Part shown: positions 6,067 through 63,294 of the stretch, piece by piece | How positions within the stretch are numbered: position 1 is the stretch's first letter | How the letters are laid out: every line of letters begins with the position of its first letter | Notes under the pieces: generated by a model | Databases searched by the model: none | Seen by the model: only the letters and a program-made list of their open reading frames with translations | Told to the model about the DNA's origin: nothing | Assembly: GCA_017885655.1 (NCBI GenBank) | Contig: JAFNFQ010000004.1 | Span: 89,373 to 153,372 of the forward strand | DNA length: 64,000 nucleotides | Source: Methanobacteriota archaeon | Lineage (GTDB): Archaea > Thermoplasmatota > Thermoplasmata > RBG-16-68-12 > JAFNFQ01 | Reading direction: 5' to 3' | Translations under genes and position numbers: made by a program

Positions 6067-6099
6067 CCAAGGGGAAAAAGACAATAAGCCACACCAGTC

Positions 6100-7125: not shown

Positions 7126-7138
7126 CCTGAGGAAGTGA

Positions 7139-35713: not shown

Positions 35714-35928
35714 CGTCGTGCCTCCTCCAATCGAAGCCCTATCAGGGGCATCGAAAGTCAAAGCGATATCCGACTATTTAATAACAAATGTCGAGGAGGT
35801 GCGATTGAACGCGGATGCCGACGACATGGGGAATTCCCGCCATTTTCGGAGCGCTGTCGTCCTATCATGTCGCGATGCTACAGCGACACCGATAGGCCTT
35901 TGAGCCGCCGCGCACTTTCTCCCTGCGC

Positions 35929-38811: not shown

Positions 38812-38943
38812 GAGCTGCCGGGGCGGCGCGGTCTGAGCGTCCTTCATTGTCCCTACTTCAAGGAATCAGACAAGGCATCTGCATCAAGATTCCGTCATCG
38901 CCGGAATCGCATGGTTTAACATCCGCGGGGAGTTCCCACGGAC

Positions 38944-41656: not shown

Positions 41657-41719
41657 GGCGGCGGCGAGATGAAACGTGGGCGTAAATATTCTTCCGCGGA
41701 AAGCCTTCAACAGGGAATC
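41576..41719. repeat. Direct repeat copy 2 of the GNAT promoter/5' segment
   Basis: See copy 1. Copy 2 ends where the Fic gene (41718-42656) ends. Confidence 0.7.
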
Positions 41720-42656
41720 AGCGGGCTTGCGTCCCCGGCTGGACCGTTTCCGCGTACCGCGCTAGTGCATGCTTGCTTGAATACCATGTGCGGCCGATCT
41801 TGACGGCCTCGAGCACTCCCTGCCGCGCGCGCAACGAGAGGTATTCCTGAGAATACGCGCTGCCCCGGGCAAGCTGTCTCAGGGGGACGAGAGCACGTTC
41901 GGGATCCACCGCGGACAGGAACACCGCCAGCCCCTCGTCAACAGCATGCAGTACGAAGCCCGAGAGCGGTCCGTACCGGCCCCGGTCCGCCTCATCGAGA
42001 CACTTGTAGTACCGCCGCCTGTCCTCCACGCGGAGGACGACAGGCGCGTATCCTGCGCTGATGAGCACCAGGTTGGCGGCCAGCCGCGCGGTCCTCCCGT
42101 TCCCGTCGAGGAACGGATGGATCGATGCGAGGCGGTGATGCAGGCAGATGCTGCGGAGGACCGGCTCGCGGATGGCGGGAAGTCCCTTGAACAGCTGGTC
42201 GAGTCGCCGGACGATCTCGGATGGGGGCGGCGGGAGGTGCGCCGAACCGCCGATCCGGACCTGCTGCCGTCTGTACTCCCCTGGAGACTCCAGCGTCCCC
42301 TTCGTGACCATTTCGTGGAGCTTCTTGAGGGGGGCATGGTCGAACCGCAGGCCAGGACGGCCACTCTCCCATATCCAGTCGAAGGCCTCCGCGTTGTTCG
42401 TGGCCTCGAGGTGTTCGCGGACGCTCTTCCCCCCGATCGTGATCCCCTGCTCGATGATGAGGCGGGTCTCCTTGAGGCTGAGCGTGTTCCCCTCTATGGC
42501 GTTGCTGTTGTAGGTGTGGTAGAGGCGCAGCTGCTGCCGCAATCGTTCCAGGACGTCCCGGGGAAGGGGCCTGCGGGACCGCAGCTCCTTGAGATTCGAC
42601 TGGACCCGCCGCCATGTCACAGGAGGAAGGTCGGAGACGGATATCGGTATCGGCAT
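41718..42656 (-). CDS. Fic/Doc-family protein
   Basis: Canonical Fic motif HPFLDGNGRTARL. Confidence 0.85.
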   Translation of the reverse strand: MPIPISVSDLPPVTWRRVQSNLKELRSRRPLPRDVLERLRQQLRLYHTYNSNAIEGNTLSLKETRLIIEQGITIGGKSVREHLEATNNAEAFDWIWESGRPGLRFDHAPLKKLHEMVTKGTLESPGEYRRQQVRIGGSAHLPPPPSEIVRRLDQLFKGLPAIREPVLRSICLHHRLASIHPFLDGNGRTARLAANLVLISAGYAPVVLRVEDRRRYYKCLDEADRGRYGPLSGFVLHAVDEGLAVFLSAVDPERALVPLRQLARGSAYSQEYLSLRARQGVLEAVKIGRTWYSSKHALARYAETVQPGTQAR

Positions 42657-42800: not shown

Positions 42801-43493
42801 TCATCCGGCGGTGAACACGTCCCATCTCGAGACTTTCGCGCCCGCCGACCTCAACTCCTCGATGAGGGCGGTGGCGTCCTCGTCCGAGAGCATGAGGACT
42901 GATGGGGAGACGACAGTCGCCTCGTACCTGTCCTTGAGCCCCTCGTACCTGTAGATCGTCCGGCGCCCTCCGACCTCCTTCGTCGAGACGGACCCGTGGA
43001 CCTTACGCGACACCTGCACCTTCTTGCCGGGCGGGAGGCCTGTGAGGTCATAGGAGACTAGGACCATCGGCCTCAACGCGAGGTGGTCGGGCGTGAGGAC
43101 GAACTTGCCCTGGAGCACGACTCCCTCCCGGAACACGTTCCTCAGGAAGCTCGGGTCGAGGTCCCTCAGGTTCGTGGGGATCGCGTTGATGTCCCTGTGG
43201 GGCCTGAGCGCTGTCACCATGCGCGCGATCTGCCGGTTGAGCGTCTGGGGAACCCTGCGGTCGACTATCACGAGGAGGTCGATGTCGGACCTGCGGTCGA
43301 ATTCGCCGCGGGCGAGGGAGCCGAATAGCACTACCCCGCCAGCTCGGACGATTCCCTGAAGGCCGTCGAGGAACCTCTCGATGAGCCGCCGGTCGTCGTC
43401 GGGGAGCTCAGTGAAGCTCGGCTTCGATGTCCCCGAGGATCTCCTTCGCTCTCTTGGCCGACTTTCCATCTCCTTTTCCTCCGTAGTGTTCAT
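42801..43493 (-). CDS. Nucleotidyltransferase-domain protein (MNT-like N-terminus + about 110-aa C-terminal domain)
   Basis: LFGSLARGEFDRRSDIDLLV = GS...D.D minimal nucleotidyltransferase signature. Confidence 0.8.
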   Translation of the reverse strand: MNTTEEKEMESRPRERRRSSGTSKPSFTELPDDDRRLIERFLDGLQGIVRAGGVVLFGSLARGEFDRRSDIDLLVIVDRRVPQTLNRQIARMVTALRPHRDINAIPTNLRDLDPSFLRNVFREGVVLQGKFVLTPDHLALRPMVLVSYDLTGLPPGKKVQVSRKVHGSVSTKEVGGRRTIYRYEGLKDRYEATVVSPSVLMLSDEDATALIEELRSAGAKVSRWDVFTAG

Positions 43494-46562: not shown

Positions 46563-46700
46563 CTAGGCACGTGACTTCGCACCGCCTCTGAGAATGACGG
46601 TCGCAACTCCATCCAGGCACAGCGGCGACAGCTTCCCCTCCGAGCCCTCATGGATGCACGTCTCTTTCAGGTCGCATCCGGGGCAGAACTGCACATGGAG
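46563..46700. repeat. Copy c of the repeated gene-3' segment (about 140 bp, Y-type end)
   Basis: Minus-strand reading VQFCPGCDLKETCIHEGSEGKLSPLCLDGVATVILRGGAKSRA* versus RFCPECDLRATCVHEGSEGRLSPLCLDGVATAILRANFESSI* of the full gene. Similarity continues about 25 bp past the stop codon. Confidence 0.7.
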
Positions 46701-46751
46701 CCCGACCGATTTAAATTGACGCGGTGTGCCGATGCTCGGAGACGACCGCGA

Positions 46752-47921
46752 CTAATCGAGGATTATATCGAGATAGGGCCGATAGGCGAAAACTCGATTG
46801 CGCCTGTTCCCCGTCTGTTCATTCAAAAGCGCGAGCCCCTCCAGTTCGACCGCGAGTTCGTTCGCGCTCGGGAACGACAGCCCTGTGACCCTCTGCATAT
46901 CGTTCACCGAGACCATCGGGTGCTGGTACATGAACTCGATGAGAATGAGTGCGCCTCCCGCCCTTCGTCCCATTGCATTCTGGATCAACCGCCTATGCTC
47001 CTCACGCAGCTGGATGATTCTCTTCGCTGTCTCGGTCGCCTGCCTGGACACCTCGTCGACGCCTTTCAGGAAGAACCTCAGCCAGCCCTCCCAGTCCCCC
47101 TCGTCCCTGACCGCCTGCAGCGTGTCGTAGTACGAAGACCTGTTCTGGCGGAAGTAATGTGAAAGGTAGAGCAGGGGCCGCTCGAGATAGCCCTCCGCCG
47201 TCAAGAGGAAGGTGATGAGCAGACGCCCCATCCTCCCGTTGCCGTCCAAGAACGGATGGATCGTCTCGAACTGGCTGTGCGCGAGCCCCACCTTGACCAG
47301 CGGCGGCAAGGATCTCTCTGTCAGGAGAAAGCGCTCCAGATCGTCGAGGGCCTTTCTCATCTCGGGTACAGCAGGCGGGACGAAGGCTGCATCTTCAATC
47401 CCCCTCTCCGAGGGGCCGATCCAGTTCTGCACCGACCTCAGCTCGCCAGGACTATGGCTGCTGCCCCTGCCCCTGCTGAGCAGGCGAGCATGTATCTCCT
47501 GAACGAGCGCGACAGACAGCTCTCTCCCCCTCGCGATCTGACCCAGACCGTGGTTCATCGCGTCGATGTAGTTGGACACATCGACGACATCGCGAGGGTG
47601 ACCGCGCAGGCGCGCGCCCGCCTCGTACTCGAGGAGGTCGATCAGCGATGATTGGGTGCCCTCGATCTGGCTGGACAGTACGGCCTCTTTCCTGATATAC
47701 ATGAAGACGAAGAGGTCCGGGTTCGGCAGGGTCTCCGTCGCCCCGCTGAGCCTCCCAAGGTTCCTGTCCGCTTGCGAGAGGATGCTCAGCATCGAGCTGT
47801 CGAAGTCGATCGGAGGATTGGGCGGGAGCGGTTTGGGGACATATGTGCGATAGCCTTCCGGTTGCATCGCATATTGACCTGCACGCGCGGTCGTTTTTAC
47901 CATATTTAAGCCAGCCTTCAC
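46752..47921 (-). CDS. Fic-family protein with C-terminal winged-helix region
   Basis: Fic motif HPFLDGNGRMGRLL; 389 aa with the C-terminal wHTH typical of long Fic proteins. Confidence 0.85.
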   Translation of the reverse strand: MKAGLNMVKTTARAGQYAMQPEGYRTYVPKPLPPNPPIDFDSSMLSILSQADRNLGRLSGATETLPNPDLFVFMYIRKEAVLSSQIEGTQSSLIDLLEYEAGARLRGHPRDVVDVSNYIDAMNHGLGQIARGRELSVALVQEIHARLLSRGRGSSHSPGELRSVQNWIGPSERGIEDAAFVPPAVPEMRKALDDLERFLLTERSLPPLVKVGLAHSQFETIHPFLDGNGRMGRLLITFLLTAEGYLERPLLYLSHYFRQNRSSYYDTLQAVRDEGDWEGWLRFFLKGVDEVSRQATETAKRIIQLREEHRRLIQNAMGRRAGGALILIEFMYQHPMVSVNDMQRVTGLSFPSANELAVELEGLALLNEQTGNRRNRVFAYRPYLDIILD

Positions 47922-48119: not shown

Positions 48120-48199
48120 TCACTCCGACTTCGCTCTCAGGATGACTGTGGCGATCCCGTCCAGGCACAGCGGCGACAGCTGCCCCTCCGAGCCCTCGC
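48120..48199. repeat. Copy d of the repeated gene-3' segment (shortest Y-type copy, about 80 bp)
   Basis: GTCCAGGCACAGCGGCGACAGCTGCCCCTCCGAGCCCTCG is shared with copies c and e. Minus-strand reading ...GSEGQLSPLCLDGIATVILRAKSE*. Confidence 0.6.
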
Positions 48200-48345
48200 G
48201 GAGGCGTAATTCTCCTGCGGCACTCCGGGCGGAACCGCACACGGGATTTACTCTGACGGAATTCTCCTATCCTAGGCCGATTGCGTTATGAAAGTACACA
48301 GAATCATTATGGCCGCGAATGCGTTGCCATTCGCGTGGATGAGAC

Positions 48346-48861
48346 ATGACTGCAGAGCGCACGATGCTGTTCATGGACGGATCGAATCTTTTCCACTCCA
48401 CCAAGGACTTCGACCCTGGATTGAAAATCGATCTCGTGAAACTTCGAGATTTCTTGGCGAAAGACAGGCTCCTGATACGCGCATACTACTATGGCTCGAT
48501 ACCGATTGGGAATCCGGAGAGAATCGCGAAACAGACCGCCTTTCATCACTTGCTCGAGTACAGCGGTTTCAAGACGGTGATTTTGCCGCTGCGCAGGCGA
48601 GGGGCGGAGTACGTGGAGAAAGGTGTCGACGTCTCCCTTGTTACCGACATGTTGGCGCTTGGGTTCGATCGAGCTTACGAGTGCGGCATTCTCGTGGCTG
48701 GCGATGCCGACTATGTCAGGGCGATTCAAGAGGTAGAACGCAAGGGCATCAGGATTCACGTCGCATTCTACGATCTCCCCTTATGTGCGGGCGACCTGAG
48801 ACGGGCTGCACATTCGTTCGTCTCGCTGGATAAGCATCTTGAGGAATTCAGGAAGTCGTGA
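48346..48861 (+). CDS. NYN-domain (LabA-like) protein, paralog 1
   Basis: MLFMDGSNLF ... YYYGS ... EKGVDVSLVTDML ... LVAGDADYVRAIQEV, matching the NYN/LabA core. The likely true start is the ATG at 48364. Confidence 0.8.
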   Translation: MTAERTMLFMDGSNLFHSTKDFDPGLKIDLVKLRDFLAKDRLLIRAYYYGSIPIGNPERIAKQTAFHHLLEYSGFKTVILPLRRRGAEYVEKGVDVSLVTDMLALGFDRAYECGILVAGDADYVRAIQEVERKGIRIHVAFYDLPLCAGDLRRAAHSFVSLDKHLEEFRKS

Positions 48862-48879: not shown

Positions 48880-48975
48880 GAAGCTTTTTTGCCAGACGAC
48901 CGAGCCAAATGATGTGCGCTTGTCGTTATGGTTTTTGGCGGTCGTCTGGAGAGTTATTTTCGCATTCTTAATTCA
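48880..48975. repeat. Conserved hairpin element (copy 1) just downstream of NYN paralog 1
   Basis: TTTTTT-GCCAGACGACCG-(loop with CTTGTCGT)-CGGTCGTCTGG-AGAGTTATTTTC. Resembles 60420-60515 in the arms, the loop motif and the T-rich flanks. Confidence 0.55.
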
Positions 48976-49087: not shown

Positions 49088-49492
49088 CTAGATGGACGAT
49101 TCGAAGTTTGCGCGGAGTATCGCGGTCGCAACACCGTCCAGGCACAGCGGCGACAGCCTCCCCTCCGAGCCCTCGTGGACGCACGTCGCCCTCAGGTCGC
49201 ATTCGGGGCAGAACCGCACGCGGATCTCGCTCTCATCCAGCCCCAGGAGGCCCGCCTGGTCGAACATGTCGTGGAGGAGCTTCAGGTACTTGCCCTCGGC
49301 TATGCGCGGCACGTCGTACTTCGCCGCCTTCAGTCCCCCGCGCGCGGTCCAGTACTCGTAGAGGCGCCGCGCGCCCTTGGAGCTGTTGCACAAGGGGCCG
49401 ACCCGGAAGGCATTCCTCCCGCCACTAGTCAATAAATGGCGATTGCATTCCGTGCAGCTTCGCCACGAATTCTTCAGTCTTCTTAAAGTCAC
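49088..49492 (-). CDS. Hypothetical small Cys-pair protein (134 aa if GTG at 49492); the full-length gene whose 3' end recurs in copies a-d
   Basis: SCTECNRH ... FCPECDLRATCVHEG Cys pairs. 3' region 49088-49284 is the repeat unit. The GTG start overlaps the upstream RNase-III-like gene by 68 nt, so the true start may be an internal TTG/GTG/ATG. Confidence 0.5.
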   Translation of the reverse strand: MTLRRLKNSWRSCTECNRHLLTSGGRNAFRVGPLCNSSKGARRLYEYWTARGGLKAAKYDVPRIAEGKYLKLLHDMFDQAGLLGLDESEIRVRFCPECDLRATCVHEGSEGRLSPLCLDGVATAILRANFESSI

Positions 49493-49937
49493 GATCAGTA
49501 TCTAAGTAAACGGCTCCTATGAGCGCCTCTAGCGTCTCGGCCGGAATTCTCGGTTGCACATCGAGGCTCTTATCTCTCTCCGACCCTCCCAGCCGAATGA
49601 GACCTCCGACTCCTTTTTCCAGTGCGAGTTTTGCTAACGTCGGTTTCTCTTCCATCTTTCTCCTTTCCACGGTAATTTTGTCCCCTGTCTCGAAGCCGGA
49701 GTGATATAGGATATCGGTTAGTGCCGCTTTGAGCAAAGCATCGCCCAAGGTCGCGAGCGCTGTCTGATCCTCACATTTCGGTTGCTGCAACGCCCGATCC
49801 TCGACAAACTTCTGACGGGTCAATGCACGGATGAGAATATCTGTGTTTCCGAATCGATGGCCGAGAATTCCTTCCTCTTCGTTCGCTTTGATGATCTTGT
49901 CCATTGGGTCTTCGAGTTTCAAGCAATCACCTCGCAC
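49425..49937 (-). CDS. RNase III-domain-like protein (170 aa, single catalytic-domain type)
   Basis: LATLGDALLKAALTDILY and ETLEALIGAVYLD resemble the RNase III signature (ERLEFLGDA ... EALIGAIYLD). Confidence 0.55.
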   Translation of the reverse strand: MRGDCLKLEDPMDKIIKANEEEGILGHRFGNTDILIRALTRQKFVEDRALQQPKCEDQTALATLGDALLKAALTDILYHSGFETGDKITVERRKMEEKPTLAKLALEKGVGGLIRLGGSERDKSLDVQPRIPAETLEALIGAVYLDTDRDFKKTEEFVAKLHGMQSPFID

Positions 49938-50150: not shown

Positions 50151-50633
50151 TTGCGCATGGCAGGAGTTACGTGCCTGACCTTGTCGGGGGACAACTACTG
50201 GGCGGTCGTCAACAGCGTCTGGTCTCTTCTGTATGAGGGGCTTTCAGTCCCTAGCCACCTCATTCTCATAACTAACGGCCGCCACAAAGATGTCGCGAAG
50301 AGGGCTTCCGATTCGTTGCAGACACTGCTTTCCTTCTATGGGATGACCAGCGTCCCCGAAATCATCGTCGTCCCCGAATATGACCTGCGCCAGGTACACG
50401 ACAAGCTGTTTGAAATCATGCAGAAGGCCAAGTCGGAGGGAGAAGTCGCTCTCAATATCACTCCGGCTAGAAAGTCGCTTGCCACAGTCGCCATGGTCGC
50501 CGCATGGGAAACTAAGGTGAATAGAATCCATTACGTTTACCTCAGAAGTCTCAAGGACGCCGATTGTCCCTATCCCCTCATAGCAAGGGATCTCCATGAA
50601 TTGCTCGACTTGAAGGAGCTCCGCCCGAAATGA
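50151..50633 (+). CDS. CARF-like Rossmann-fold sensor domain protein (degenerate ligand-site motif)
   Basis: VTCLTLSGD ... HLILITNG ... VALNITPARKSLATVAMVAAWE ... IHYVYL parallels the Csa3-like protein in this window (VHIATVGE ... LHINITGGTNIMASAALIAG ... VYYI), but with NITPA in place of NITGG. TATA CTATATAC at 50118-50125; likely ATG at 50157. Confidence 0.45.
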   Translation: MRMAGVTCLTLSGDNYWAVVNSVWSLLYEGLSVPSHLILITNGRHKDVAKRASDSLQTLLSFYGMTSVPEIIVVPEYDLRQVHDKLFEIMQKAKSEGEVALNITPARKSLATVAMVAAWETKVNRIHYVYLRSLKDADCPYPLIARDLHELLDLKELRPK

Positions 50634-51718
50634 GCACATGGTGCGCGCCCAGCAGATTCCTGATGGCGCTGGTCAACAGGATTTTTGGATATGGACGCGG
50701 GGTAATCACAATCAGATATCCACTCTATGGCACGGAGCTCTTCTCATTCGATTCATCATTCAAAGTCAAGAGCGCCTCATCCAAGCACAAGTTTTACGAA
50801 GCGCGAAAGGCTGCAACCTCATGGAGCAAGGAGCTGAGTCACGAAGCGCCCGAGTGGAACCAAGTGATGGACTCGTTCGTATCCTCTGGGACATTGAAGC
50901 CTCAGAACCTCGCCGATTTCGCTGTATGGGCCAGGAAGACACTGGAGGATAGGAGACGTCCGGAATTGGCAGCTCGCCCATTCTTCCTGGCAATCGATAC
51001 GAATGTAGCTTACAATCGCCTGTTCACGCGGCATTTTCCAATCGATGGCCCAAGCGGCGTCGTTAGAGCTCCAGATTTCAGATTCCTGTTATGCGATGTT
51101 GTCCGTCGAGAAGTCGACGAACAGATTAAACGAAAATATCGCGGGGAACTGAACCAAATATTCACCCATCCTGAACAGGAATCGATTCTCAAGGAAATCG
51201 GAGGACGCAATGTCCTCGTGGCGCGAAGGGCCAAGCTCGCTCAGAATGAAATCGACTACCTTGACAAAACGCTCAACGCCTTGACTGTTCCTTGCACGGA
51301 GTTCCCCTCAGACAAGGAAGATCGAGATATTCTCATCGCAAAGACCTACGGAGCATTCAGCCGGGACAGAAACGTGGACATAGCGCTGCTGACGATGGAC
51401 CAGAACATGGTGGACCACGCGAAGAATGCTCAGATTATGTCCTTCTCGTTAAGGGTCCCTGGAGCTTCGGAACTGGAGAAGGTCGAACTGCACTACTCCC
51501 TGTGGCATCTGCTCCACGATCTGGCCGTTGCGCTAGGCGTGATTGACATAGAGCCCTTCGGGACGCGGGTGTACGGCGAGTGGGCCGGAAAAACCACGTC
51601 TGACTACGGCGCAGAGAGAGTGAAGATAGTTCTCGACGACAAAGCTCCAATAGCGAATGAAGTGGTCAGGGACTTCCGGATTTGCGCGAAAGTCTTGGGA
51701 GTGTCAATTAGCGGCTGA
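50630..51718 (+). CDS. PIN-domain nuclease with N- and C-terminal extensions
   Basis: ATGA overlap with the CARF-like gene. PIN core PFFLAIDTNVAYN ... DVVRREVDEQ ... LLTMDQNMVDHA. Confidence 0.65.
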   Translation: MSTWCAPSRFLMALVNRIFGYGRGVITIRYPLYGTELFSFDSSFKVKSASSKHKFYEARKAATSWSKELSHEAPEWNQVMDSFVSSGTLKPQNLADFAVWARKTLEDRRRPELAARPFFLAIDTNVAYNRLFTRHFPIDGPSGVVRAPDFRFLLCDVVRREVDEQIKRKYRGELNQIFTHPEQESILKEIGGRNVLVARRAKLAQNEIDYLDKTLNALTVPCTEFPSDKEDRDILIAKTYGAFSRDRNVDIALLTMDQNMVDHAKNAQIMSFSLRVPGASELEKVELHYSLWHLLHDLAVALGVIDIEPFGTRVYGEWAGKTTSDYGAERVKIVLDDKAPIANEVVRDFRICAKVLGVSISG

Positions 51719-53230
51719 CGGTTTGCCATCGTGGGATTCAGCGACTATGTCGGCGCCTAGATCCTTCGCTCTCTGTGTGACACGTTTAGCATCATCAGGT
51801 GACTTGGCCAGGATGTATTTCTTCCCTTTGTGTTGGAATAGATCTACATCTTCTTCTGACTTCAACCTCTGGGCACCCTTTGGAAGAGTCGGAGGGAGCA
51901 CTGTCCAACGGTACACGATCTCGTGGGGCAATGATTGCACCTCCCCCTCATCGGGAATAGGGAATTCCTTGGGCTCGGTCTCCGCCATCGAGTCCAACGA
52001 TTTCGCTTGAATTGTGCCAAGGTCTTTCTCGATTGTCCCTCCTACGATTGCCGGCGACAGTCCCCTGCCGTCCCAGAGGAGGCATTCGCCGGTAACCTGG
52101 CCGCGGGGCAGGTTCTCCGTCAGCCTGAAGTGGAATGTCTTGGGCCATGACTCCATCAGGGTTCGAAGACTCTCGCACTGGGCGGGGGTGAGTTGGACAC
52201 CGGTCTCGAACCCGGTATCTAATCCGCGTGATTCTACATTGGCCGTCATCACGATGCCACGCATCTTGCCGCTCATCTTGCCTAACATGGCTTTCGCGTG
52301 CAGGTACCTGTGAGCATATACATCCGCGCCTCCGCGCATCAGATTCACGGCAGCCTCCATGTTCTTGACGCGGGGTCGCATGAAAATGTGCGTTCTCAGC
52401 CCACCCTTGACCCTCTTCAGCAGGTTTTGTGTGACTTCGTGTTTCATATCGAGATTATAGATTGACATCCAGAAATCATCCTGTGCACTCTCCACGAAGT
52501 CCAACAGAGATTGCCTGAGGGTTTGCATGTTCTGCGTCGTCACGGGCAGGTCAGACGGCAACACGGACTTTATCTCCATCCTACCGGACTTGCTGACCGG
52601 TTCTAGGCGTCCAGCTCGGAACAGCTCGTGTTCGCTCTCCTGCCAGAATCCGATTCTGAACTGTTCGAAAAGCGCTTTCGCAAGATCACCTTTCAAGGGG
52701 ATAACCACCTCAACGTTCCGTGTCAAGGCTTCTGTGGCAAGATTTGCGGTGGAAAGGAAGGCTGCCGTCTTGCCAGGACTCCGCGGATCGACGATCACAA
52801 ATTTCGAATGGAAGTGCCCTGCTGTGCGGACCAATACTCTGCCCGCCAATGCGTCCAATGTCGCCTTATGCTCCTCAACCTGCCTCTTAGCGAATTCCGA
52901 TTCCTGAGAAAGGTCTTTGAGCAGATGTTGCTCCGACATCGTCAGCACGTAACAGCGCACACCTCTTTTCGACGCCTCCAGGAGCGCGTTGCCGATATTC
53001 TGATCGTAGAACAGGAAAGAGCAAAGGCATACCGTTTCCATAGAAGAGCGTATGGCTTCGACGATCATCGAACGGGCGAACCCAGTTTCCTCGGTGGGCC
53101 ATATGGTGGCGTCGCGCCTCGGCGGCACTGCGGGCGATCCCATCTGAGGCGCCAAAGGAATCCATGCAATCCCTAGAGGATTTTCCCTGAAAGGCTTGAT
53201 CATCTTCTTCTCTAGCGCCCAAGTGCTCAT
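51704..53230 (-). CDS. Phospholipase-D-family nuclease (two HKD motifs), MkoB-like
   Basis: HFHSKFVIVD and HAKAMLGK HxK motifs. ATG at 53230 gives an ATGA overlap with the upstream gene; the track ORF from 53278 would overlap it by 52 nt. Confidence 0.8.
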   Translation of the reverse strand: MSTWALEKKMIKPFRENPLGIAWIPLAPQMGSPAVPPRRDATIWPTEETGFARSMIVEAIRSSMETVCLCSFLFYDQNIGNALLEASKRGVRCYVLTMSEQHLLKDLSQESEFAKRQVEEHKATLDALAGRVLVRTAGHFHSKFVIVDPRSPGKTAAFLSTANLATEALTRNVEVVIPLKGDLAKALFEQFRIGFWQESEHELFRAGRLEPVSKSGRMEIKSVLPSDLPVTTQNMQTLRQSLLDFVESAQDDFWMSIYNLDMKHEVTQNLLKRVKGGLRTHIFMRPRVKNMEAAVNLMRGGADVYAHRYLHAKAMLGKMSGKMRGIVMTANVESRGLDTGFETGVQLTPAQCESLRTLMESWPKTFHFRLTENLPRGQVTGECLLWDGRGLSPAIVGGTIEKDLGTIQAKSLDSMAETEPKEFPIPDEGEVQSLPHEIVYRWTVLPPTLPKGAQRLKSEEDVDLFQHKGKKYILAKSPDDAKRVTQRAKDLGADIVAESHDGKPSAAN

Positions 53231-54357
53231 CGAACCGCCTCCTGCTTCCCCAGGTCGGTTGGTGCCCGCAAGTACCAATATGCCGCTGGCAATAAATCAC
53301 CACGAAGGATTGCGCCATGCCGAATCTGATCGGCCATCTTATCATGTTCAGGCAATGTGATATCGAAATCTGGGAATCTGTCGGTGACACCGCGGACTAG
53401 TTTAGGATAGCTGTTTTCATCAAGGTATTCGGTGATTTCATGCTCGAGAACCCACTCCCCCCATTCTTGTGCGTCTTTGACCGTTCGCGGGGCAATTGGC
53501 ACGTCACGGATTTCTGTTTCATCAAACGTGCCGTATTCACTCACGGTCGGCCTATCTAACTTCAGTTGCCTCGACATCGACGTCTTCTCTGCATCCGACA
53601 CCTCATTGAAGCCGCATCGCAAGACCCCTCTTCGAGCATCCCATGCCTGGCGAGTGTCGCCCAACAACTCAAGGAAAATGCTTTCGTGGGAAACCTTGGG
53701 CGACTCCATATCCCACTTTGCGAAACCTTCTGCCATGAGCTCAGATTCTCTATCAGGGTGGATGATCCATTTCAGCGAAAGCCTCTCATTCTGTTCCACC
53801 TGCGAACGTACGCATCGTTCAGCGACTGACATGATGCGGATTCGCTCCCCTAATCGTGGAAGCATGATTGACTGGTCTTTCAATTCGACAAGCCATGGCG
53901 GCACCTGCTCGACCTCCTCAGATTGTTTGCCTTTCGATTCGAGCCTCCTCGCCGCCCTGCGCGCGTTCACGATGTCCTCCACCATGGGCTCGTGCGTGCC
54001 TTCCAAATCCAGGATTCGCTGAGGAACCAACGGGTCGGTCGTGCAAAGAATTCTATAACGTCCATGCTCTGGCAATGGCACAGTTTTTCGCTCAAGCGAT
54101 TCTCTCCCTAAAGGCGTGAGACTTCCATAATCGTCAAGTAGCCCGAGATCTCGGCAGCGCGAAATTACCGTATGGCCAACGGCTATCGGTCGATCAATGA
54201 GGAGGGAATTGCAGATGTCCTCTGCTCTGATTTGTCCTCCGAGTTCTTCCGCTCGCATCAGAACGGAGATGACATCCTTGCGCCTCTCCTCCCTCCCGAC
54301 TTCCATAACAACTTCATACGCGGTCATTGACACATTTCGACTAAGGATGATCTTCAT
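53227..54357 (-). CDS. Hypothetical protein (376 aa) embedded between the helicase and PLD genes
   Basis: 4-nt overlaps on both sides indicate co-translation within the operon. No recognisable motif; the N-terminus is possibly wHTH-like. Confidence 0.6.
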   Translation of the reverse strand: MKIILSRNVSMTAYEVVMEVGREERRKDVISVLMRAEELGGQIRAEDICNSLLIDRPIAVGHTVISRCRDLGLLDDYGSLTPLGRESLERKTVPLPEHGRYRILCTTDPLVPQRILDLEGTHEPMVEDIVNARRAARRLESKGKQSEEVEQVPPWLVELKDQSIMLPRLGERIRIMSVAERCVRSQVEQNERLSLKWIIHPDRESELMAEGFAKWDMESPKVSHESIFLELLGDTRQAWDARRGVLRCGFNEVSDAEKTSMSRQLKLDRPTVSEYGTFDETEIRDVPIAPRTVKDAQEWGEWVLEHEITEYLDENSYPKLVRGVTDRFPDFDITLPEHDKMADQIRHGAILRGDLLPAAYWYLRAPTDLGKQEAVR

Positions 54358-57002
54358 CTTGTGTTCGACCTCCCTTCTTTTGAACTGTATGAGAAGGCTA
54401 TTGGTATCTGGGTCCCGAGCCGCCGCAACAAATCAGATTTCCACTGGCGGGCGAAGCCCCTGCAATTCCCCACTAGGACCAATTGGAATCGCCCTCTCGT
54501 TATCGCGACGTTCAATCTATGAGGACTGTCGAGGAATCCAATGCTTTTTCTTCCGAGTGGATCCCGAACAAAGGATAAAAGCACGAAATCTGCCTCGTGC
54601 CCTTGGAATCGGTCAACAGATCCAAGAGAGACGCGGACCCTGCCATCGCCGGTCTTGAAATGCTGCCTGTTCCAAGACTTGAACAAGCTACGCAATCGTC
54701 GTCTCAGCTCGCTTTCTTGGGCGAGATAGAATGTCAGCACGGCAACATCCCACGGCAATATAGTGCCGTTCTTCTTCTTCGGATTGCTAGTCGCCCACGA
54801 AAGGAAGGTCTGGAGCTCATCCATTATAATGTCGGCCTCGGCAAAATTGCGGTTGGCGTTCGGATCTTCATTCGCTAGAACATGAATCCAAACGGATCGG
54901 GCGCCGTATCTTCCGATATTCAGAGACCGCTGTGAAGCAATGTTTGGTGGGTCTCTGAGGCTTTGGCCTTCGTAGATATTCTCACGCGGGAACCGGGAGA
55001 TATCAGGATGCATTCGATGCTGATACGTCAAGACCGCGTGTCGCTTGCTCAGAACTTCCGTGGGCAGCCCGTGGGTGATTGCCGTTGGCTCATACTTCAT
55101 CTGCTCCCTTTCGAATCCGACTTGAAGCATTTCCAGGATAGAAGGCAGTGCTACGCGCTTGATTGAATTGACTTCATATGAAATACGATTCATTTCTTTT
55201 TCATCGAGCCACTTTGGCAGGAGCGCGTCGACATCTGCGGCGTACCGTTTCGCCTCTTCAGGCCGACGGCGGAGTTCAAACTGACGAATGAGGCGCCATC
55301 CGATTTCCGAAGCCCACGTTTTCTCCTCGCGTTCCATCTGTTCCTCATTGTCGGCCTCCTCGGGATGACGCACTCGCCAGTACGCCATTCTTCGCTCGAG
55401 GCGTGACGTGATAACCGTCTCGGAGAGAACTTGAACATTCAGAGGCAATAAACGACCGATGACGGTCAAATCCTTCGTGTCAGCGACCATCAGGTCGGCC
55501 CAAAGTGGCCCCAGGTCTCCACTATCGATCGTCTGCGGCGACAATTGTACCGTAGGTATGCCCAGCGCTTCCGCTTGTTTTACTGCCCATTCCCTGACCT
55601 TCGGGTCGGGGTCGCAAAGGAGAAAGCTGCGTTTCTCGCCCTTCTTGCGACGCGCCCGCACGAAGGCCTTGAACACTGGTAGTATCGCGCGGCTTTCCCT
55701 CTCGTCCAGGATGCCCGCAAGATTGGCCTCGACCTCGACATTGTTCACGAAGGGTGATAGCTGATTGACATCTCCAACGAGGACCCATTTCTTCGCATAG
55801 AGTGCTGGAACCAAGAACTCCTGGAATGGGGTCTTGCTCGCCTCATCAACAATCAGTGTGTCAAACTCCGGGAACGCCGGCCGCACGAGACCCACCGCTA
55901 TGTCAGGATGTTTGAGAATGCCTATGGTGGTCCCGCATACGAGATTCGCAGAATCCAGGATCAATCGCTGAAGAACCTTTTCGCCATCTTCTTCCAAAGC
56001 TTTCAGCAGGTAGTCCTGTGCGGGGGTCCTCCGCGCAATGCCTTTGAGTTTCTTCTTGAGTTCGTTCCTCTCAGTCTCGAGCCGGTTCTTGAGCAGAAGA
56101 TGAGAGACTTGCTCGGAAACGTCGAAATCCCTCGAGGCAATTCGCACCGCGACGACGGACCTTTCCATCCACCCCAGATCTACAAGCTTCTCCAAGACAT
56201 TGTCAACCGCCACATGCGTGGATGCGCAAAGAAGGACTCGATGTCCCAGCTCGATTTCTTGAAGAATCAACTCGCAGATGGTGACGGTTTTTCCGCTGCC
56301 GGGGGGCCCTTCAAGAATCGCGAAATCCGGGGTGCCAAGGGCTTTCTCCACAAAGTCACGTTGTTCATCGACTCCCGCAAAGTCGTCATCGACCAGTATT
56401 CTCCAGTTAATGGGGGAGACAGCCGCAACTGGTTCCCATCGAACATTGTTGTAGCCTTCGGCCAATGAAATCAAAGGCCTGTGAGCAGGGTGAGGACTCT
56501 GCCGAATATTCTCCAGGGCCATTAGCTCGCGATAGAGGTTCCATGTATTGGGGTGAATGTAGACTTTCTCTGCAGCTGGCAATCGGGACACACAGATCGC
56601 GTCAATTTCGGGCTCCCTGTCAAGCACCTCAATATCGCCGCGTCCTGCCTTTGCTTTATCGGAAATGAAATCCGCATCGAAGAACTCATCGAACACTTCT
56701 TCGGGAGTCTCAGCGTCGATTTCTCTCAGACGAATCCAAAATCCCATCGCACTCGTTTTTCGTTGTGCCGGTTGGTGAATGTTTTGTTCGGAGGGCATCG
56801 ATCCATTGGCGGTTCGATTTCGGATAATCTCTGGGTCAATAGGTCCCTCCCAGGCGAGCATCAATGCCTGCGCTTCAATCCTGTACTTTGCGCTGCTAAG
56901 ATACTTGTAGAACGGTCGGTAGTTGTTGTAGGTTCTTTCCAAGAGAACCTGAATGTCTGTGTTAGGAACTCTTGGCATATTAGCAAAGTGCAGGTTCAGC
57001 AT
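54354..57002 (-). CDS. Superfamily-1 Upf1/DNA2-like helicase (COG1112-type, MkoA-like) with about 230-aa N-terminal domain
   Basis: Walker A GPPGSGKTV, Walker B LIVDEASKT, motif VI VAITRGRFQLVLVG. Confidence 0.85.
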   Translation of the reverse strand: MLNLHFANMPRVPNTDIQVLLERTYNNYRPFYKYLSSAKYRIEAQALMLAWEGPIDPEIIRNRTANGSMPSEQNIHQPAQRKTSAMGFWIRLREIDAETPEEVFDEFFDADFISDKAKAGRGDIEVLDREPEIDAICVSRLPAAEKVYIHPNTWNLYRELMALENIRQSPHPAHRPLISLAEGYNNVRWEPVAAVSPINWRILVDDDFAGVDEQRDFVEKALGTPDFAILEGPPGSGKTVTICELILQEIELGHRVLLCASTHVAVDNVLEKLVDLGWMERSVVAVRIASRDFDVSEQVSHLLLKNRLETERNELKKKLKGIARRTPAQDYLLKALEEDGEKVLQRLILDSANLVCGTTIGILKHPDIAVGLVRPAFPEFDTLIVDEASKTPFQEFLVPALYAKKWVLVGDVNQLSPFVNNVEVEANLAGILDERESRAILPVFKAFVRARRKKGEKRSFLLCDPDPKVREWAVKQAEALGIPTVQLSPQTIDSGDLGPLWADLMVADTKDLTVIGRLLPLNVQVLSETVITSRLERRMAYWRVRHPEEADNEEQMEREEKTWASEIGWRLIRQFELRRRPEEAKRYAADVDALLPKWLDEKEMNRISYEVNSIKRVALPSILEMLQVGFEREQMKYEPTAITHGLPTEVLSKRHAVLTYQHRMHPDISRFPRENIYEGQSLRDPPNIASQRSLNIGRYGARSVWIHVLANEDPNANRNFAEADIIMDELQTFLSWATSNPKKKNGTILPWDVAVLTFYLAQESELRRRLRSLFKSWNRQHFKTGDGRVRVSLGSVDRFQGHEADFVLLSFVRDPLGRKSIGFLDSPHRLNVAITRGRFQLVLVGNCRGFARQWKSDLLRRLGTQIPIAFSYSSKEGRSNTR

Positions 57003-57901
57003 CCAATTTCCCTTCCCCTTTCCCTCAACACTCCGAAGATCTCCTTGTCATCAGCGATGACCTTCCCCCCGGGACGCCATTGGTAATGGCCGCCTCGAAC
57101 AAGAAACTTTCGCCTATCCCATCCCGCTCTCTGAATAGCATCTTGCACTCCGACCTCGAGAATCGACGGTCCGAACCCATAACTGCCACCCGTATTCTGG
57201 AAGAATCGACCGAGTGGGTCCATCATGAGGTATGAGTCTGTCATGGCCCGATTATCCTCTTTGACTGGATTGAGGCATTCATGGCGAGCGACGAAGGCTT
57301 CGAACTGCCCATTCATAGTGGCCAAGTCTGCGAAGCTGTCATCGTTCTCTCCTTTTATTGGGAGCATTTGAAAGACCTTCCACCGCCGAGGTTTCAGTTC
57401 GGCAACGAAGGATCGCATGTCTTCTCCCCAATTCATTGAGGTGACAACAGTGTTGACTTTGAATCGTATGCCGAATTCATGAATCCGCTTTGCCACTTCG
57501 CGAACAAGTGCGACATGATTTCCATCACCCCGCCCGAGAGCTTTTTCCACTTGCTCTGATGCGCTGTCAACGCTCAGAGCGATCCAGTCGACTAGGTCTG
57601 CAATCGTGCTGAGATAGGTCTTATTCAGCCGCGTCCCGTTCGATATGATCATCGTTGTCAGGCCAGCTTCTTTTGAAGCCTGAAGTACCTCTCGGAGGTG
57701 GGAACACAATGTCGGCTCCCCTCCCGCCAAGGTCAACTTTTCCGTCCCCGCTTTGCGGAGAATCTCCGGAATCTTCACCGCCTGATTCATCGAAAGCGGG
57801 GTACAGATTCCCTTGAAATGGGCGAAGCAGAATCTGCAGCGATAGTTGCACCATGGCCATATATGCCAATTCACCGAAACCGGTTCCACGCCCCCATTCA
57901 T
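56996..57901 (-). CDS. Prokaryotic viperin (pVip) radical-SAM enzyme
   Basis: Residue-level correspondence with animal viperin: PVSVNWHIWPWCNYRCRFCF vs [20 protein letters not shown]; AGGEP vs SGGEPF; ISNGTRL vs VSNGSLI; FKVNTVV vs FKINSVI; RWKVFQMLPIKGEN vs RWKVFQCLLIEGEN; MTDSYLMMD vs MKDSYLILD; ILEVGVQDAIQRAGWDRRKFLVRGGHYQW vs [29 protein letters not shown]. Confidence 0.9.
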   Translation of the reverse strand: MNGGVEPVSVNWHIWPWCNYRCRFCFAHFKGICTPLSMNQAVKIPEILRKAGTEKLTLAGGEPTLCSHLREVLQASKEAGLTTMIISNGTRLNKTYLSTIADLVDWIALSVDSASEQVEKALGRGDGNHVALVREVAKRIHEFGIRFKVNTVVTSMNWGEDMRSFVAELKPRRWKVFQMLPIKGENDDSFADLATMNGQFEAFVARHECLNPVKEDNRAMTDSYLMMDPLGRFFQNTGGSYGFGPSILEVGVQDAIQRAGWDRRKFLVRGGHYQWRPGGKVIADDKEIFGVLRERGREIGC

Positions 57902-57946
57902 CTAGATTGTCAGGTATTGCAGACACCTATAGCGGTTCTCTTTTAT

Positions 57947-57967
57947 AGTAAAATGCTGCATTTTACT
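57947..57967. promoter_or_regulatory. Perfect 10-bp inverted repeat (AGTAAAATGC-T-GCATTTTACT) in the pVip/csa3 divergent promoter; candidate Csa3 operator
   Basis: Lies between the TTTTATAG TATA-like box (57941-57948) and the csa3-like ATG (57973), i.e. over the expected leaderless transcription start. Confidence 0.4.
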
Positions 57968-57972
57968 GACGG

Positions 57973-58617
57973 ATGTGCGCAGTCCATATAGCCACGGTCG
58001 GCGAAACGCCCGAGCCAATCATAGAAGGCGTCAGACACCACAGCGTCGATTTGCAGGTGCTCCTGCATAGTCGCGAGACAAAGAGTGTTGCCGTCGAAAT
58101 TCGCAGGAGGATTAAGAGCCTTATTGGCAGAGACATCTGTGAGCTGAAGGAGATCGATCCGTTCGACATGCGCGACATCATGACTGCCATCGTCTCATAT
58201 CGAAAAAGGATGCCCGCGGAGGTGCTCCACATCAACATAACGGGCGGAACCAACATCATGGCATCTGCGGCCCTGATAGCGGGATTCGTGGTCGGGGCAC
58301 GCGTTTACTATATCCGGAAGGATCCAAACCCGAAGATACCGCTCGCTGATCGTATCATCGAGCTTCCGGTTCCCCGCGTTTCTCTTGAGAGCCTCGACGA
58401 GAATCATCGCAGGATTCTGAAATTGATACATAATCGAGGAACGGAGTTCGCTCCGGCCAACAGCGTGATTGCGACCGAATTGGGGATGTCGCGGCAGCTC
58501 GTGAGCTACCACCTCAGGAGGCTCGAGAGGGCGGGCTTATTGCACCTGACACTTGAAGGTCGAAACAAGATCGCGAGTCTGACGCCCGAAGGAGACCTCT
58601 ACGCTGAGATTGTTTGA
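57973..58617 (+). CDS. csa3: Csa3-like transcriptional regulator (CARF domain + winged HTH)
   Basis: CARF motifs VHIATVGETPEP and LHINITGGTNIMASAALIAGFVVGARVYYI; C-terminal wHTH RILKLIHNRG ... IATELGMSRQLVSYHLRRLERAGLL. Confidence 0.8.
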   Translation: MCAVHIATVGETPEPIIEGVRHHSVDLQVLLHSRETKSVAVEIRRRIKSLIGRDICELKEIDPFDMRDIMTAIVSYRKRMPAEVLHINITGGTNIMASAALIAGFVVGARVYYIRKDPNPKIPLADRIIELPVPRVSLESLDENHRRILKLIHNRGTEFAPANSVIATELGMSRQLVSYHLRRLERAGLLHLTLEGRNKIASLTPEGDLYAEIV

Positions 58618-59255
58618 TCCAGAATGCGCCCCATAACCGAAGCCGAATCACAAGGACGCGATGGCAAGATTCTTGTCCACCCATTAACATGGCGCACCAA
58701 CGAGGCCGTCATATGACCAAGAATCCGGCGAAAATGAGGGAGGACTTCAAGCCCGATAGGATACGATTTCTGATGGTCGGAGAATCACCGCCCAGGAAAG
58801 GGTTCTTTTATGATCCTGAAAGCTCATTGAAGTCGTTGTCTCGCGGTACCGCTGAAGTCTTTGAGGAAGTATATGGTGAGGACTATGGCAAAGGAGAAGA
58901 CCAGAAGCTCCTGTTCCTCAATAGCTTCCAATCTAAAGGGTTCTATCTTCACGATTTCTACGCTGTGAGAGGCAAGAAAGTAAGAAGAAGACGTTGGGAC
59001 GATATATACGAAGGAATCGACGAGCTCAGGTCATTGCTGGAAGTCAGTAAGGCCGACATTGGACGTGTCGTGACGGTGTGGCCCGAGATCTCGGACATCG
59101 TGGATGAAGCTTTGTGGAAGGAGGAGATTAAGGCACTGCACAGGATCGTCCCATTCCCCTCCAATGTGAGCATGAAGGTCTACAAGTGGAGGATCTCGGA
59201 GATCGTGAAGGAGTTCGAAGGTCGTCCGCGTTCGCATTCTCGCAACGATCGATGA
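58614..59255 (+). CDS. Hypothetical protein, ATGA-coupled to csa3 (alternative ATG at 58713); possible uracil-DNA-glycosylase-superfamily fold
   Basis: FLMVGESPP and IVPFPSNVS loosely resemble UDG motif A (GE.PG) and motif B (HPSP.N). Weak assignment. Confidence 0.4.
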   Translation: MIQNAPHNRSRITRTRWQDSCPPINMAHQRGRHMTKNPAKMREDFKPDRIRFLMVGESPPRKGFFYDPESSLKSLSRGTAEVFEEVYGEDYGKGEDQKLLFLNSFQSKGFYLHDFYAVRGKKVRRRRWDDIYEGIDELRSLLEVSKADIGRVVTVWPEISDIVDEALWKEEIKALHRIVPFPSNVSMKVYKWRISEIVKEFEGRPRSHSRNDR

Positions 59256-59635: not shown

Positions 59636-60199
59636 ATGCAACATTCGATGCCTGAGAGATTGATGATTTTCATCGATGGTTCAAATCTCTTTCACACCGG
59701 TCGACTGTACGGGAAGCATTACCGAATCGAGGACCTATGCAACGAACTGTCCGCGGACAGACAACTCGTCCGGACCTACTACTATGGTTCCATTCCCACT
59801 GGCGGAGACGACGACAAGGTGGAGAAGCAGAAAGGATTCCATATGAGGCTGGAATATGGGGGAATCAATGTCAGCATCATTCCGCTGAAGACACGGGAGG
59901 TCAATTTTAAATGTCCAAAGTGTGGGGCAAAATCGGCTTTCAGCCGCAATGTCGAGAAGGGGGTGGACGTCGCGCTCGTCACTGACATGCTTGCTTTCGG
60001 TTTCCGCGATGGCTACGATGTGGCCTTGCTGGTCGCGGGCGACCTGGATTACATCAGAGCGATTGAGGAAGTGAAGAGGATACCAAAAAGGGTCGAGATA
60101 GCATTCTTCGAGAGCATCCAGGCGATCAGCGGCGCACTGAAGAGGAAAGCGGATCGCTTCATTCCTCTGGAACCGATAATCAACAAGATCGGCACCTAG
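59636..60199 (+). CDS. NYN-domain protein, paralog 2, with an inserted CPKCG zinc-ribbon
   Basis: MIFIDGSNLF ... YYYGS ... KCPKCG ... EKGVDVALVTDML ... LVAGDLDYIRAIEEV. Confidence 0.8.
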   Translation: MQHSMPERLMIFIDGSNLFHTGRLYGKHYRIEDLCNELSADRQLVRTYYYGSIPTGGDDDKVEKQKGFHMRLEYGGINVSIIPLKTREVNFKCPKCGAKSAFSRNVEKGVDVALVTDMLAFGFRDGYDVALLVAGDLDYIRAIEEVKRIPKRVEIAFFESIQAISGALKRKADRFIPLEPIINKIGT

Positions 60200-60419: not shown

Positions 60420-60515
60420 AAGGTTTTTTACCAGACGACCGACAAGCCATCCCCGCGAACACTTGTCGTCAAGGCATTAGCCGTCGTCTGGAGAGCTATT
60501 TTCAGACACCTCATT
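60420..60515. repeat. Conserved hairpin element (copy 2) downstream of NYN paralog 2
   Basis: TTTTTT-ACCAGACGACCG-(loop with CTTGTCGT)-CCGTCGTCTGG-AGAGCTATTTTC. See 48880-48975. Confidence 0.55.
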
Positions 60516-60677
60516 CGTTTCGGACTTTGAAGCCTTTATGCTTCAATTCATCAAGGTGCGCCGCACACGATGTCGCGAACCGAATTGAGTACACGGTCGG
60601 AGGAATCCCTGATGTCTTTCTCCGTGATGTTCAAGCGAGATCGCATCCGCATTTCTTTCCGCGCGAACGGGTTGGAC

Positions 60678-62661: not shown

Positions 62662-63294
62662 ATGCGAGACACGGAAGCAGATTCGGAAATAGGTGTGAGC
62701 GCGGATGTGGGAACGTCAGCCAAGAGAGTGGCCGTCTTCGTTGACGTGCCAAACCTCTGGGTCGTTGCGAAAGACAATGGTTTCGATTTTGACACGAAAC
62801 CAGTGATCGACGCAGCAAAGACCTACGGTCGGGTCGTTCTCGCAAAGGCATATGCCGCCATCCAGTGGGGGCGGCCAGTGAATTCTGGGGTGATAGACCT
62901 CGAGCATGTCGGCTTCGAGGCCGTGCATAGATGCGTGTCGCCGAAAGATGGCAATGGAAAGAAAGACATCGACTCCCTACTCTTGACGGATATGATCGTG
63001 GCCGCGTACGAAAACGTGGCCGACACGTTCCTGCTTGCAAGTGGAGACTCAGACTACGTTCCAGCCATTCGGACGATCAGACGGCTTGGCAAGAAGGTCG
63101 TGGTCATGTCATACCCCGCCCAGATGTCCCCGCGGCTGCTTGCAATCGCAGACGAGGCCATATCGATGATCCCCCCCTGCGAAGTGAAGGATCCCGGGAA
63201 CGAAAGTTGTGCAATGCCCCCCGCCATCCGGGATTCGACGTGGAGTCGGGACTGTGGGGTCCCTGTTGATGGCTCAGCAGGAGTCAAAGGATAG
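62662..63294 (+). CDS. NYN-domain protein, paralog 3
   Basis: VAVFVDVPNLW ... KDIDSLLLTDMIVAAY ... LLASGDSDYVPAIRTIRRLGKKVVV. Confidence 0.75.
   Translation: MRDTEADSEIGVSADVGTSAKRVAVFVDVPNLWVVAKDNGFDFDTKPVIDAAKTYGRVVLAKAYAAIQWGRPVNSGVIDLEHVGFEAVHRCVSPKDGNGKKDIDSLLLTDMIVAAYENVADTFLLASGDSDYVPAIRTIRRLGKKVVVMSYPAQMSPRLLAIADEAISMIPPCEVKDPGNESCAMPPAIRDSTWSRDCGVPVDGSAGVKG

Follow-up and report, generated by a model that had tools for sequence, protein, structure and literature searches.

Mokosh type I is a two-gene defense system consisting of MkoA and MkoB, in which MkoA carries a Ser/Thr kinase domain and in which defense needs both the helicase ATPase site and the phospholipase D (PLD) active site (Millman et al., bioRxiv 10.1101/2022.05.11.491447). 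The CoCoNuT systems encode a Upf1-like helicase, CnuH, followed by a partner containing a winged helix-turn-helix (wHTH) and by nuclease effectors (HEPN, Vsr, two PLD domains); RtcR-like CARF regulators are frequent in these systems, and ancillary defense genes located between the regulator and the core form what are termed “superoperons” (Bell et al., eLife 2024, PMC11090510). Viperin is not mentioned in that paper. In published work, prokaryotic viperins (pVips) confer protection as single genes; the partners examined by Shomar et al. are nucleotide kinases, and the pVip subtypes of the PADLOC type include a TPR partner. Here, we analyze a 64,000-nt stretch of contig JAFNFQ010000004.1 (the window, to whose full length all window coordinates refer), in which a pVip gene forms an operon with genes encoding a Upf1-like superfamily 1 (SF1) helicase, a protein that we call X, and a PLD-family nuclease, divergent from a gene encoding a CARF-wHTH regulator. 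The novelty of this locus is one of known parts newly combined, i.e., a viperin embedded in a CARF-controlled cassette of Upf1-like helicase, X, and PLD. The locus is probably a signal-inducible antiviral operon that would combine chain termination by 3′-deoxy-3′,4′-didehydro-nucleoside triphosphates (ddhNTPs) with a helicase-nuclease attack.

Gene structure and domain identities of the operon

The regulator, the intergenic region and the four genes of the operon are located as follows.

57973-58617, plus strand: CARF-wHTH regulator of Csa3-like architecture, divergent from the operon (Pfam and PADLOC)
57902-57972, no strand: divergent promoter/operator region (putative operator), with a palindrome and a TATA box
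56996-57901, minus strand: pVip, gene 1 of the operon, 301 aa
54354-57002, minus strand: Upf1-like SF1 helicase (MkoA/CnuH-like core) with 211 unannotated aa at the N terminus, 882 aa
53227-54357, minus strand: protein X, an N-terminal winged helix plus ~270 aa without detectable relative, signature gene of the cassette, 376 aa
51704-53230, minus strand: two-HKD PLD-family nuclease, final gene of the operon, 508 aa counted from the ATG (with a TTG at 53278 as an alternative start)

These four minus-strand genes had been proposed, with these coordinates and with overlaps of 4 to 7 nt, in an earlier reading of the window (the original prediction), and both the list of open reading frames (ORFs) and our reading of the junctions directly from the sequence reproduced them exactly. 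The pVip/helicase junction is ATGCTGA, a 7-nt overlap, and the helicase/X and X/PLD junctions are both ATGA, each a 4-nt overlap. A GGAGG-like purine tract lies 8-12 nt 5′ of every internal start in the operon, and overlaps of 7, 4, and 4 nt accompanied by such Shine-Dalgarno-like tracts are the form expected for translational coupling. The overlaps and the gene layout therefore bear out a tightly coupled operon divergent from a CARF-wHTH gene. The description of the viperin as “fused” was wrong, since the genes are separate and overlapping, with no gene fusion.

By every available test, the first gene of the operon is predicted to encode a bona fide viperin. Its product scores 277.6 bits with the PADLOC pVip model and 285.2 bits with NCBIfam NF038283 (viperin_w_prok, an equivalog), above the curated threshold of 180, and it matches mouse viperin (5VSL/6Q2P) with an E value of 1.6e-53. 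The radical S-adenosylmethionine (SAM) motif CNYRCRFC (residues 18-25) and the SAM-binding GGEP (residues 60-63) are both invariant across six operon pVips. Alignment with mouse viperin demonstrated that SNG, KxN, RWKVFQ, DSY, and RGGxYxW are conserved and that every triphosphate- and ribose-binding residue is kept; the radical-SAM and nucleotide-binding residues of a ddh-nucleotide synthase, on which the original prediction depended, are intact. At the positions of mouse Cys314 and Lys319 the window pVip has Asn and Tyr, respectively, and this Asn/Tyr pocket is a mark of substrate-promiscuous prokaryotic viperins (Shomar et al.). The archaeal operon pVips are mutually 51-71% identical and have a common C-terminal tail not found in the mouse enzyme. 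Public gene calls for a sequence identical to 56996-57901 (L004, L047, and L048) use an internal ATG start that gives a 264-aa protein; because this start removes the CxxxCxxC Fe-S motif, the 301-aa start is correct, and automated annotation truncates the enzyme.

The identity of the second gene product as a Upf1-like SF1 helicase held up: in Pfam it matches AAA_11 (114 bits) and AAA_12 (123 bits), the MkoA model PDLC03920 gives 278.4 bits, aligned over the helicase core alone (profile positions 618-1081 of 1112), and the nearest solved structures are Upf1/NAM7 (E ~1e-31), IGHMBP2, DNA2, and Sen1. Walker A (GPPGSGKT) and Walker B (DEAS) motifs are readable in the translation, the N-terminal 211 aa have no Pfam match even at E<=5, and one close homolog is labelled Thermoplasmata archaeon. 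The last gene product was likewise correctly called a two-HKD PLD nuclease, with 68.8 bits for PLDc_2 in Pfam and with the residues of both HxK...N motifs (H141/K143/D148/T161-A-N163 and H311/K313/N331) invariant in 11 homologs, archaeal and bacterial. Its best PADLOC match is DrmC (54.9 bits), with MkoB at 17.8 bits (E=4e-4); bacterial PLD homologs from the cassette score 31-47 bits with the MkoB model. The sole solved-structure match is mouse MitoPLD/Zucchini 4GGJ (E=0.0028), and the C terminus returned no Pfam match at E<=5.

Protein X combines a wHTH with a large region for which no relationship was detected. It has no match in Pfam, PADLOC, or NCBIfam, its C-terminal region gave no Pfam match at E<=5, and a Foldseek search of full-length X against the PDB gave no match below E=0.28; the AlphaFold2 model, made with 31 sequences, is confident (pLDDT 89, pTM 0.76). 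A word-indexed protein search with X alone found four relatives and suggested a rare gene, a view that was overturned by a profile search of 1.84 billion representatives, with 937 matches at E<=1e-3, of which 337 also passed E<=1e-30. Among the matches listed, the best 150 are ~260-450 aa long, mostly 360-415 aa, with a single matched stretch over nearly the whole profile. The X family was not found in the viral contigs searched.

The regulator matches HFX_2341_N in Pfam over residues 4-115 (44.3 bits, cut-off 30), HTH_20/HTH_24 over residues 143-192, and CARF3 in PADLOC (164 bits), and the CARF motif NITGGTN is readable in its translation. Between regulator and pVip, a perfect 10+1+10 palindrome, AGTAAAATGC-T-GCATTTTACT, occupies positions 57947-57967 and abuts a TATA box, which reads TATAAAAG along the pVip strand. 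The block T-AAA...TTTTA(C/T)TATAAAA is invariant in five archaeal regulator/pVip spacers, the remainder of the spacer being unconserved, and the proteins of these five loci have diverged to 47-79% identity. We infer that this block comprises the promoter and a putative operator for a dimeric wHTH regulator.

Conservation of the cassette and its variable slot

Our comparison loci were contigs encoding homologs of X or of the helicase, onto which the window proteins were mapped by phmmer. The layout of a divergent regulator followed by pVip-helicase-X-PLD is present in the window and in four further loci: L001 (ENA; helicase identity 79%), L002 (Logan; ~77%, inferred from the bit score rather than measured directly), L005 (NCBI metagenome-assembled genome; 53%), and L006 (JGI; 47%). 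The flanks of the viperin loci vary and include an MmeI-type restriction-modification system, RNase HII, and a resolvase, among others. Loss of gene order in related genomes had been named beforehand as something that could undo the original prediction; the order is kept in all four, and the same layout at 47-79% helicase identity with different flanks is no chance juxtaposition. The 7-nt stop/start overlap of pVip and helicase is also kept in L001 and L005, and the spacing is tight in L006.

L002 differs in one respect, as its pVip (3533-4399) and helicase (4577-7225) are separated by a 178-nt gap with no overlap. Its X is 68% identical to that of the window and its helicase scores 1569 bits versus 1614 for L001; its pVip, at only 51% identity, may have evolved faster or may have been replaced.

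Searching with an X alignment gave 16 genome loci and 21 metagenome loci, and tblastn identified plasmid-borne copies from Vibrio aerogenes, V. rumoiensis, Pontibrevibacter, and Klebsiella. Helicase-X-PLD was found in every mapped locus, and X lies between helicase and PLD in every locus with a visible junction (>40 loci). A CARF regulator is universal: every archaeal-type locus with a visible upstream region contains a homologous CARF-wHTH gene, and in each of the 17 bacterial loci whose downstream sequence is visible, PLD is followed by a co-directional gene encoding an RtcR-like CARF-AAA(sigma54)-HTH protein, which scores ~510-520 bits on PADLOC RtcR_PspF1 (PDLC01994) and has Sigma54_activat in Pfam. 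The predicted output domain of the regulator is therefore swapped between archaea (wHTH) and bacteria (sigma54 activator). We searched for sigma54 sites of the form TGGCA(C/T)-N5-xTGC(T/A) from 350 nt upstream of the called helicase start to 150 nt inside it, and -24/-12-like sites scoring at least 9/11 were enriched there, being present in 6 of 20 bacterial loci as compared with 13 of 600 background windows. Of the six sites, four are located 12-68 nt upstream of the helicase start, that of L035 is 275 nt upstream, and that of L037 is 28 nt inside the called ORF.

Across these loci, the conserved unit is a CARF transcription factor with helicase, X, and PLD, widespread in bacteria and archaea and mostly without viperin; no further conserved gene appeared beside it in maps of related loci, for which all probes came from the window. 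This cassette appears to be an unnamed, fairly widespread candidate defense system.

On the Vibrio aerogenes plasmid pLMG19650 (L045/L049; NZ_AP024863.1, 63.4-85.2 kb), the helicase-X-PLD-RtcR-like cassette adjoins a complete type III-B CRISPR-Cas locus with cas10/cmr2-cmr6, a 3-kb cas1, and cas2, an adjacency that is suggestive as one link between the CARF regulator and cyclic-oligoadenylate signalling. Two other copies are decayed. On the Klebsiella pneumoniae IncF plasmid CP052287.1 (L046), IS21/IS26 insertions have taken the place of the helicase and of most of X, and PLD and the sigma54 regulator remain. In an uncultured deltaproteobacterium (L021), helicase, X, and PLD are broken by frameshifts.

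The position occupied by pVip in the window is a variable slot. In a neighbor-joining tree of the helicases, the viperin-bearing archaeal loci form one clade inside the archaeal branch, and in sister archaeal clades the slot between regulator and helicase holds a DUF559/Vsr nuclease (L007 and L028-30) or a NYN RNase (L026 and L027) or is empty (L008 and L025). Deep in the bacterial branch, the cassette of Ca. Parabeggiatoa communis (L016) carries a pVip between X and PLD, overlapping the PLD start; this protein scores 316 bits in PADLOC, has an intact active site, and shares only 29-32% identity with the archaeal operon pVips, indicating an independent recruitment. Judged from gene order and divergence, viperin is an accessory gene that has been taken into the cassette twice, outside its core. 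Two different viperins at different positions of the cassette are hard to explain without selection for viperin there.

Two further loci show another accessory insertion, beside PLD. Genes for a bpMoxR AAA+ ATPase and for a VWA protein lie between PLD and the RtcR-like regulator at 7359-10429 of L009, and the same MoxR gene lies directly 3′ of PLD at 6080-7627 of L012, where the contig ends before any regulator is visible.

Comparison with described systems and competing explanations

The original prediction had assigned the helicase and PLD genes to the Mokosh type I architecture, and in both, one operon encodes a Upf1-like helicase of the COG1112 type and, as a separate gene, a PLD nuclease. 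The assignment did not survive closer comparison: the cassette helicase has no kinase domain in Pfam, and only the core of MkoA aligns; the PLD scores lower with MkoB than with DrmC; and the cassette has an obligatory third gene, X, and an integral CARF transcription factor. Viperin is no part of Mokosh type I. The CnuH-CnuE modules of CoCoNuT, especially type III-C, resemble the cassette in having a Upf1-like helicase with a wHTH-containing partner and nuclease effectors, and frequently RtcR-like CARF control. We rejected a classification as CoCoNuT, since McrB/McrC (CnuB/C) are missing, as is the Hsp70-like CnuD; scanning of the neighboring window ORFs with Pfam and PADLOC gave no match to McrB/McrC. 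Other differences are that X and PLD are separate genes in the cassette, that X has an extra ~270 aa without detectable relative, and that the archaeal regulator is CARF-wHTH, not CARF-sigma54. The viperin slot is a new instance of the superoperon principle described for CoCoNuT. DISARM (DrmC PLD, DrmA SF2 helicase, DrmB DUF1998, and a methyltransferase) resembles the cassette through the PLD alone, and this classification was also rejected, as the operon lacks DrmA, DrmB, and a methylase, and as the PLD scores 56.6 bits with NCBIfam DrmC, below the cut-off of 133.

By curated hidden Markov model and by active-site residues, the window gene is like the pVips of known pVip systems (solo, with a nucleotide kinase, or with TPR), from which it differs in being coupled to helicase-X-PLD under a CARF regulator, with no kinase in the operon. 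The regulator resembles Csa3- and RtcR-type factors in that a CARF sensor is fused to a DNA-binding output that would control neighboring defense or RNA-repair genes; it differs from Csa3, a family whose traits include binding of cyclic tetra-adenylate and regulation of cas genes, in not lying beside a type I-A CRISPR locus. No description of an operon combining viperin, CARF, helicase, and PLD was found in the literature searched, in agreement with the view that the combination is apparently undescribed; an earlier mention of the RtcR_PspF1 neighborhood is possible.

Based on these comparisons, we propose that a CARF-wHTH dimer would sit on the palindrome in the 71-bp divergent promoter, and that binding of a nucleotide-type infection signal by its CARF domain would lead the regulator to change transcription. 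One transcript would then give rise to four translationally coupled proteins. The pVip would convert nucleoside triphosphates into ddhNTP chain terminators that stall viral polymerases, and the helicase, with X as a nucleic acid-binding adaptor, would present the PLD nuclease with viral RNA or replication intermediates. A helicase-nuclease attack on such targets has been hypothesized for Mokosh (bioRxiv 10.1101/2022.05.11.491447) and for CnuH/CnuE (PMC11090510). Gene structure, identities, synteny, and the history of recruitment are what the sequences show; in this scheme we infer the ligand, the binding to the operator, the direction of regulation, the nucleic acid target, and any synergy of the two activities. 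The second recruitment of a viperin, in L016, strengthens the hypothesis that ddhNTPs and the helicase-nuclease act jointly. A more specific form of such joint action, which we put forward tentatively and consider doubtful, is that the CARF-sensed signal switches on viperin, much as interferon does in animals, and that ddh-terminated viral RNAs or stalled polymerases are the substrate that the Upf1-like helicase and X pass to PLD. If true, this would amount to prokaryotic surveillance of chain-terminated transcripts and to the first viperin acting within a multi-protein effector system.

Several observations weigh against an inducible antiviral operon of this kind. Only ~6 of roughly 35 distinct cassettes examined carry viperin, so that the composite defense module of the original prediction stands as a conserved operon, but not with viperin as part of its core, given how widely helicase-X-PLD with CARF occurs without it. 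No catalytic motif was recognized in X, which is without predicted activity. The regulator scores 40.6 bits with NCBIfam Csa3 (TIGR01884), under the cut-off of 60.2, and the term Csa3-like is therefore apt for its CARF-wHTH architecture but not by the curated threshold. No cas genes, including those of type III, and no cyclic-oligoadenylate synthase were seen among the window genes scanned, and adjacency to type III CRISPR is known from one plasmid alone. In addition, co-regulation of two independent defenses would explain the conservation equally well, with no biochemical coupling between them.

We consider three other explanations less likely than the inducible antiviral operon. The cassette could be an RNA-surveillance or stress module comparable to the RtcR-controlled RtcBA operon, with viperin recruited for a role in nucleotide metabolism. 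The bacterial regulators are indeed most similar to RtcR (189 bits with NF038308, below the cut-off of that model, and PADLOC RtcR_PspF1), the helicase belongs with Upf1, whose family is active in nonsense-mediated decay, and genes for NYN, RNase III-like, and PIN-like RNases are nearby. We nonetheless regard this as unlikely in view of a patchy cross-domain distribution that includes Vibrio and Klebsiella IncF plasmids as well as low-GC islands, of the copy adjoining type III-B CRISPR-Cas, of the decayed or insertion sequence-disrupted copies (L021 and L046), and of accessory genes that are typical defense effectors (viperin, Vsr nuclease, and MoxR-VWA). It is quite improbable that pVip and a Mokosh-like helicase-nuclease are independent systems brought together merely by the clustering of defense genes. 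Such genes do cluster, and the island here also has Fic, NYN, and CARF-PIN genes; moreover, pVips protect as single genes, and the majority of helicase-X-PLD cassettes lack viperin. Mere clustering does not, however, account for the junction, with its overlap kept in L001 and L005 and its tight spacing in L006, for the placement of pVip between the regulator and the genes that it presumably controls, for the co-divergence of pVip and helicase in a monophyletic clade, or for the second, unrelated pVip inside the L016 cassette between X and PLD.

The remaining explanation concerns the chemistry, in that the viperin-like enzyme might make no free ddhNTPs and instead catalyze another radical-SAM reaction, e.g., nucleic acid modification or production of the CARF ligand. 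Two CARF proteins flank the operon, a signal synthase was not seen among the window genes scanned, and the C-terminal tail of the archaeal operon pVips is missing in the mouse enzyme. This is very unlikely for a protein that passes the curated viperin equivalog threshold, keeps the triphosphate- and ribose-binding residues, and has the Asn pocket typical of ddhNTP-producing prokaryotic viperins; furthermore, the same CARF regulators are present in cassettes that lack viperin, and the signal therefore cannot depend on viperin.

The literature searched treats prokaryotic viperins as single-gene defenses with kinase or TPR partners only, and here a viperin has become part, twice, of a multi-enzyme operon with its own regulator. 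Induction of this operon by the CARF factor on infection, if it occurs, would be a prokaryotic parallel to the interferon-induced viperin of animals. As neither Pfam nor PADLOC nor NCBIfam contains a model for X, a candidate defense system that is fairly common, to judge from the number of X representatives, escapes that annotation layer. The bacterial versions in cultured Vibrio species make experiments feasible.

Neighboring genes and other elements of the window

The cassette region has a GC content of ~0.52 versus ~0.60 over the first 47 kb of the window, which fits an acquired island, and this low-GC island also holds the Fic, NYN, and CARF-PIN genes identified with Pfam and PADLOC. The window was searched for CRISPR arrays and for relevant tandem repeats, with none detected, and an Rfam scan of it gave a single tRNA as the sole match. 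Three genes lie on the PLD side of the operon.

50630-51718, plus strand: PIN-like half of a split CARF_m1-PIN protein (PADLOC CARF_m1--CARF_PIN, 59.5 bits, profile positions 217-454 of 465)
50151-50633, plus strand: stand-alone CARF_m1 domain protein (PADLOC CARF_m1, 80.5 bits), with a 4-nt overlap with the start of the PIN-like gene
49425-49937, minus strand: small RNase III-like protein, loosely associated (Pfam Ribonucleas_3_3, 56 bits)

The PIN-like gene is convergent with the PLD gene, the two sharing 15 nt at their 3′ ends, and is a recurrent neighbor, not a universal one: homologous CARF_m1 and PIN-like pairs flank the cassette in L001/L024, L005, and L020. A homolog of the RNase III-like gene is located directly 3′ of PLD in L006. 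On the other side of the operon, a 213-aa ORF (58614-59255) has a 4-nt overlap with the CARF-wHTH gene at its stop; this ORF has no Pfam or NCBIfam match and is not conserved beside the regulator in L001, L002, and L005.

Three paralogous NYN (LabA-like) genes are present in the island (48346-48861, 59636-60199, and 62662-63294), the second of which scores 57.7 bits with the PADLOC candidate HEC-09. A conserved 40-nt element follows two of the NYN genes (48935-48974 and 60477-60516; 78% identical). Three elements of ~115 nt, 63-85% identical, are also interspersed among the island genes (46590-46704, 48138-48252, and 49115-49229), with an almost invariant 45-nt core, TCCAGGCACAGCGGCGACAGC..CCCCTCCGAGCCCTC, and no Rfam match; RNAalifold gave a modest fold for them (-22.8 kcal/mol with 7 compensatory pairs, from 3 sequences only). 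Just upstream of the low-GC block, 41718-42656, 46752-47921, and 42801-43493 encode two Fic proteins (one with Fic_N) and a Pol-beta-type nucleotidyltransferase, possibly SoFic-like or toxin-antitoxin elements that belong to this defense island.

Farther from the cassette, the GC content rises to 0.64-0.685 at 35000-40000, versus ~0.60 around it, and this region contains a 960-aa ORF (35929-38811) without a Pfam match, followed by a Na+/H+ exchanger gene. A 2532-aa ORF at 19038-26636 encodes WD40 beta-propellers, a subtilase S8 domain, and Ig-like/glucodextranase-B repeats, and immediately after it lies tRNA-Ala(CGC) at 26679-26751.

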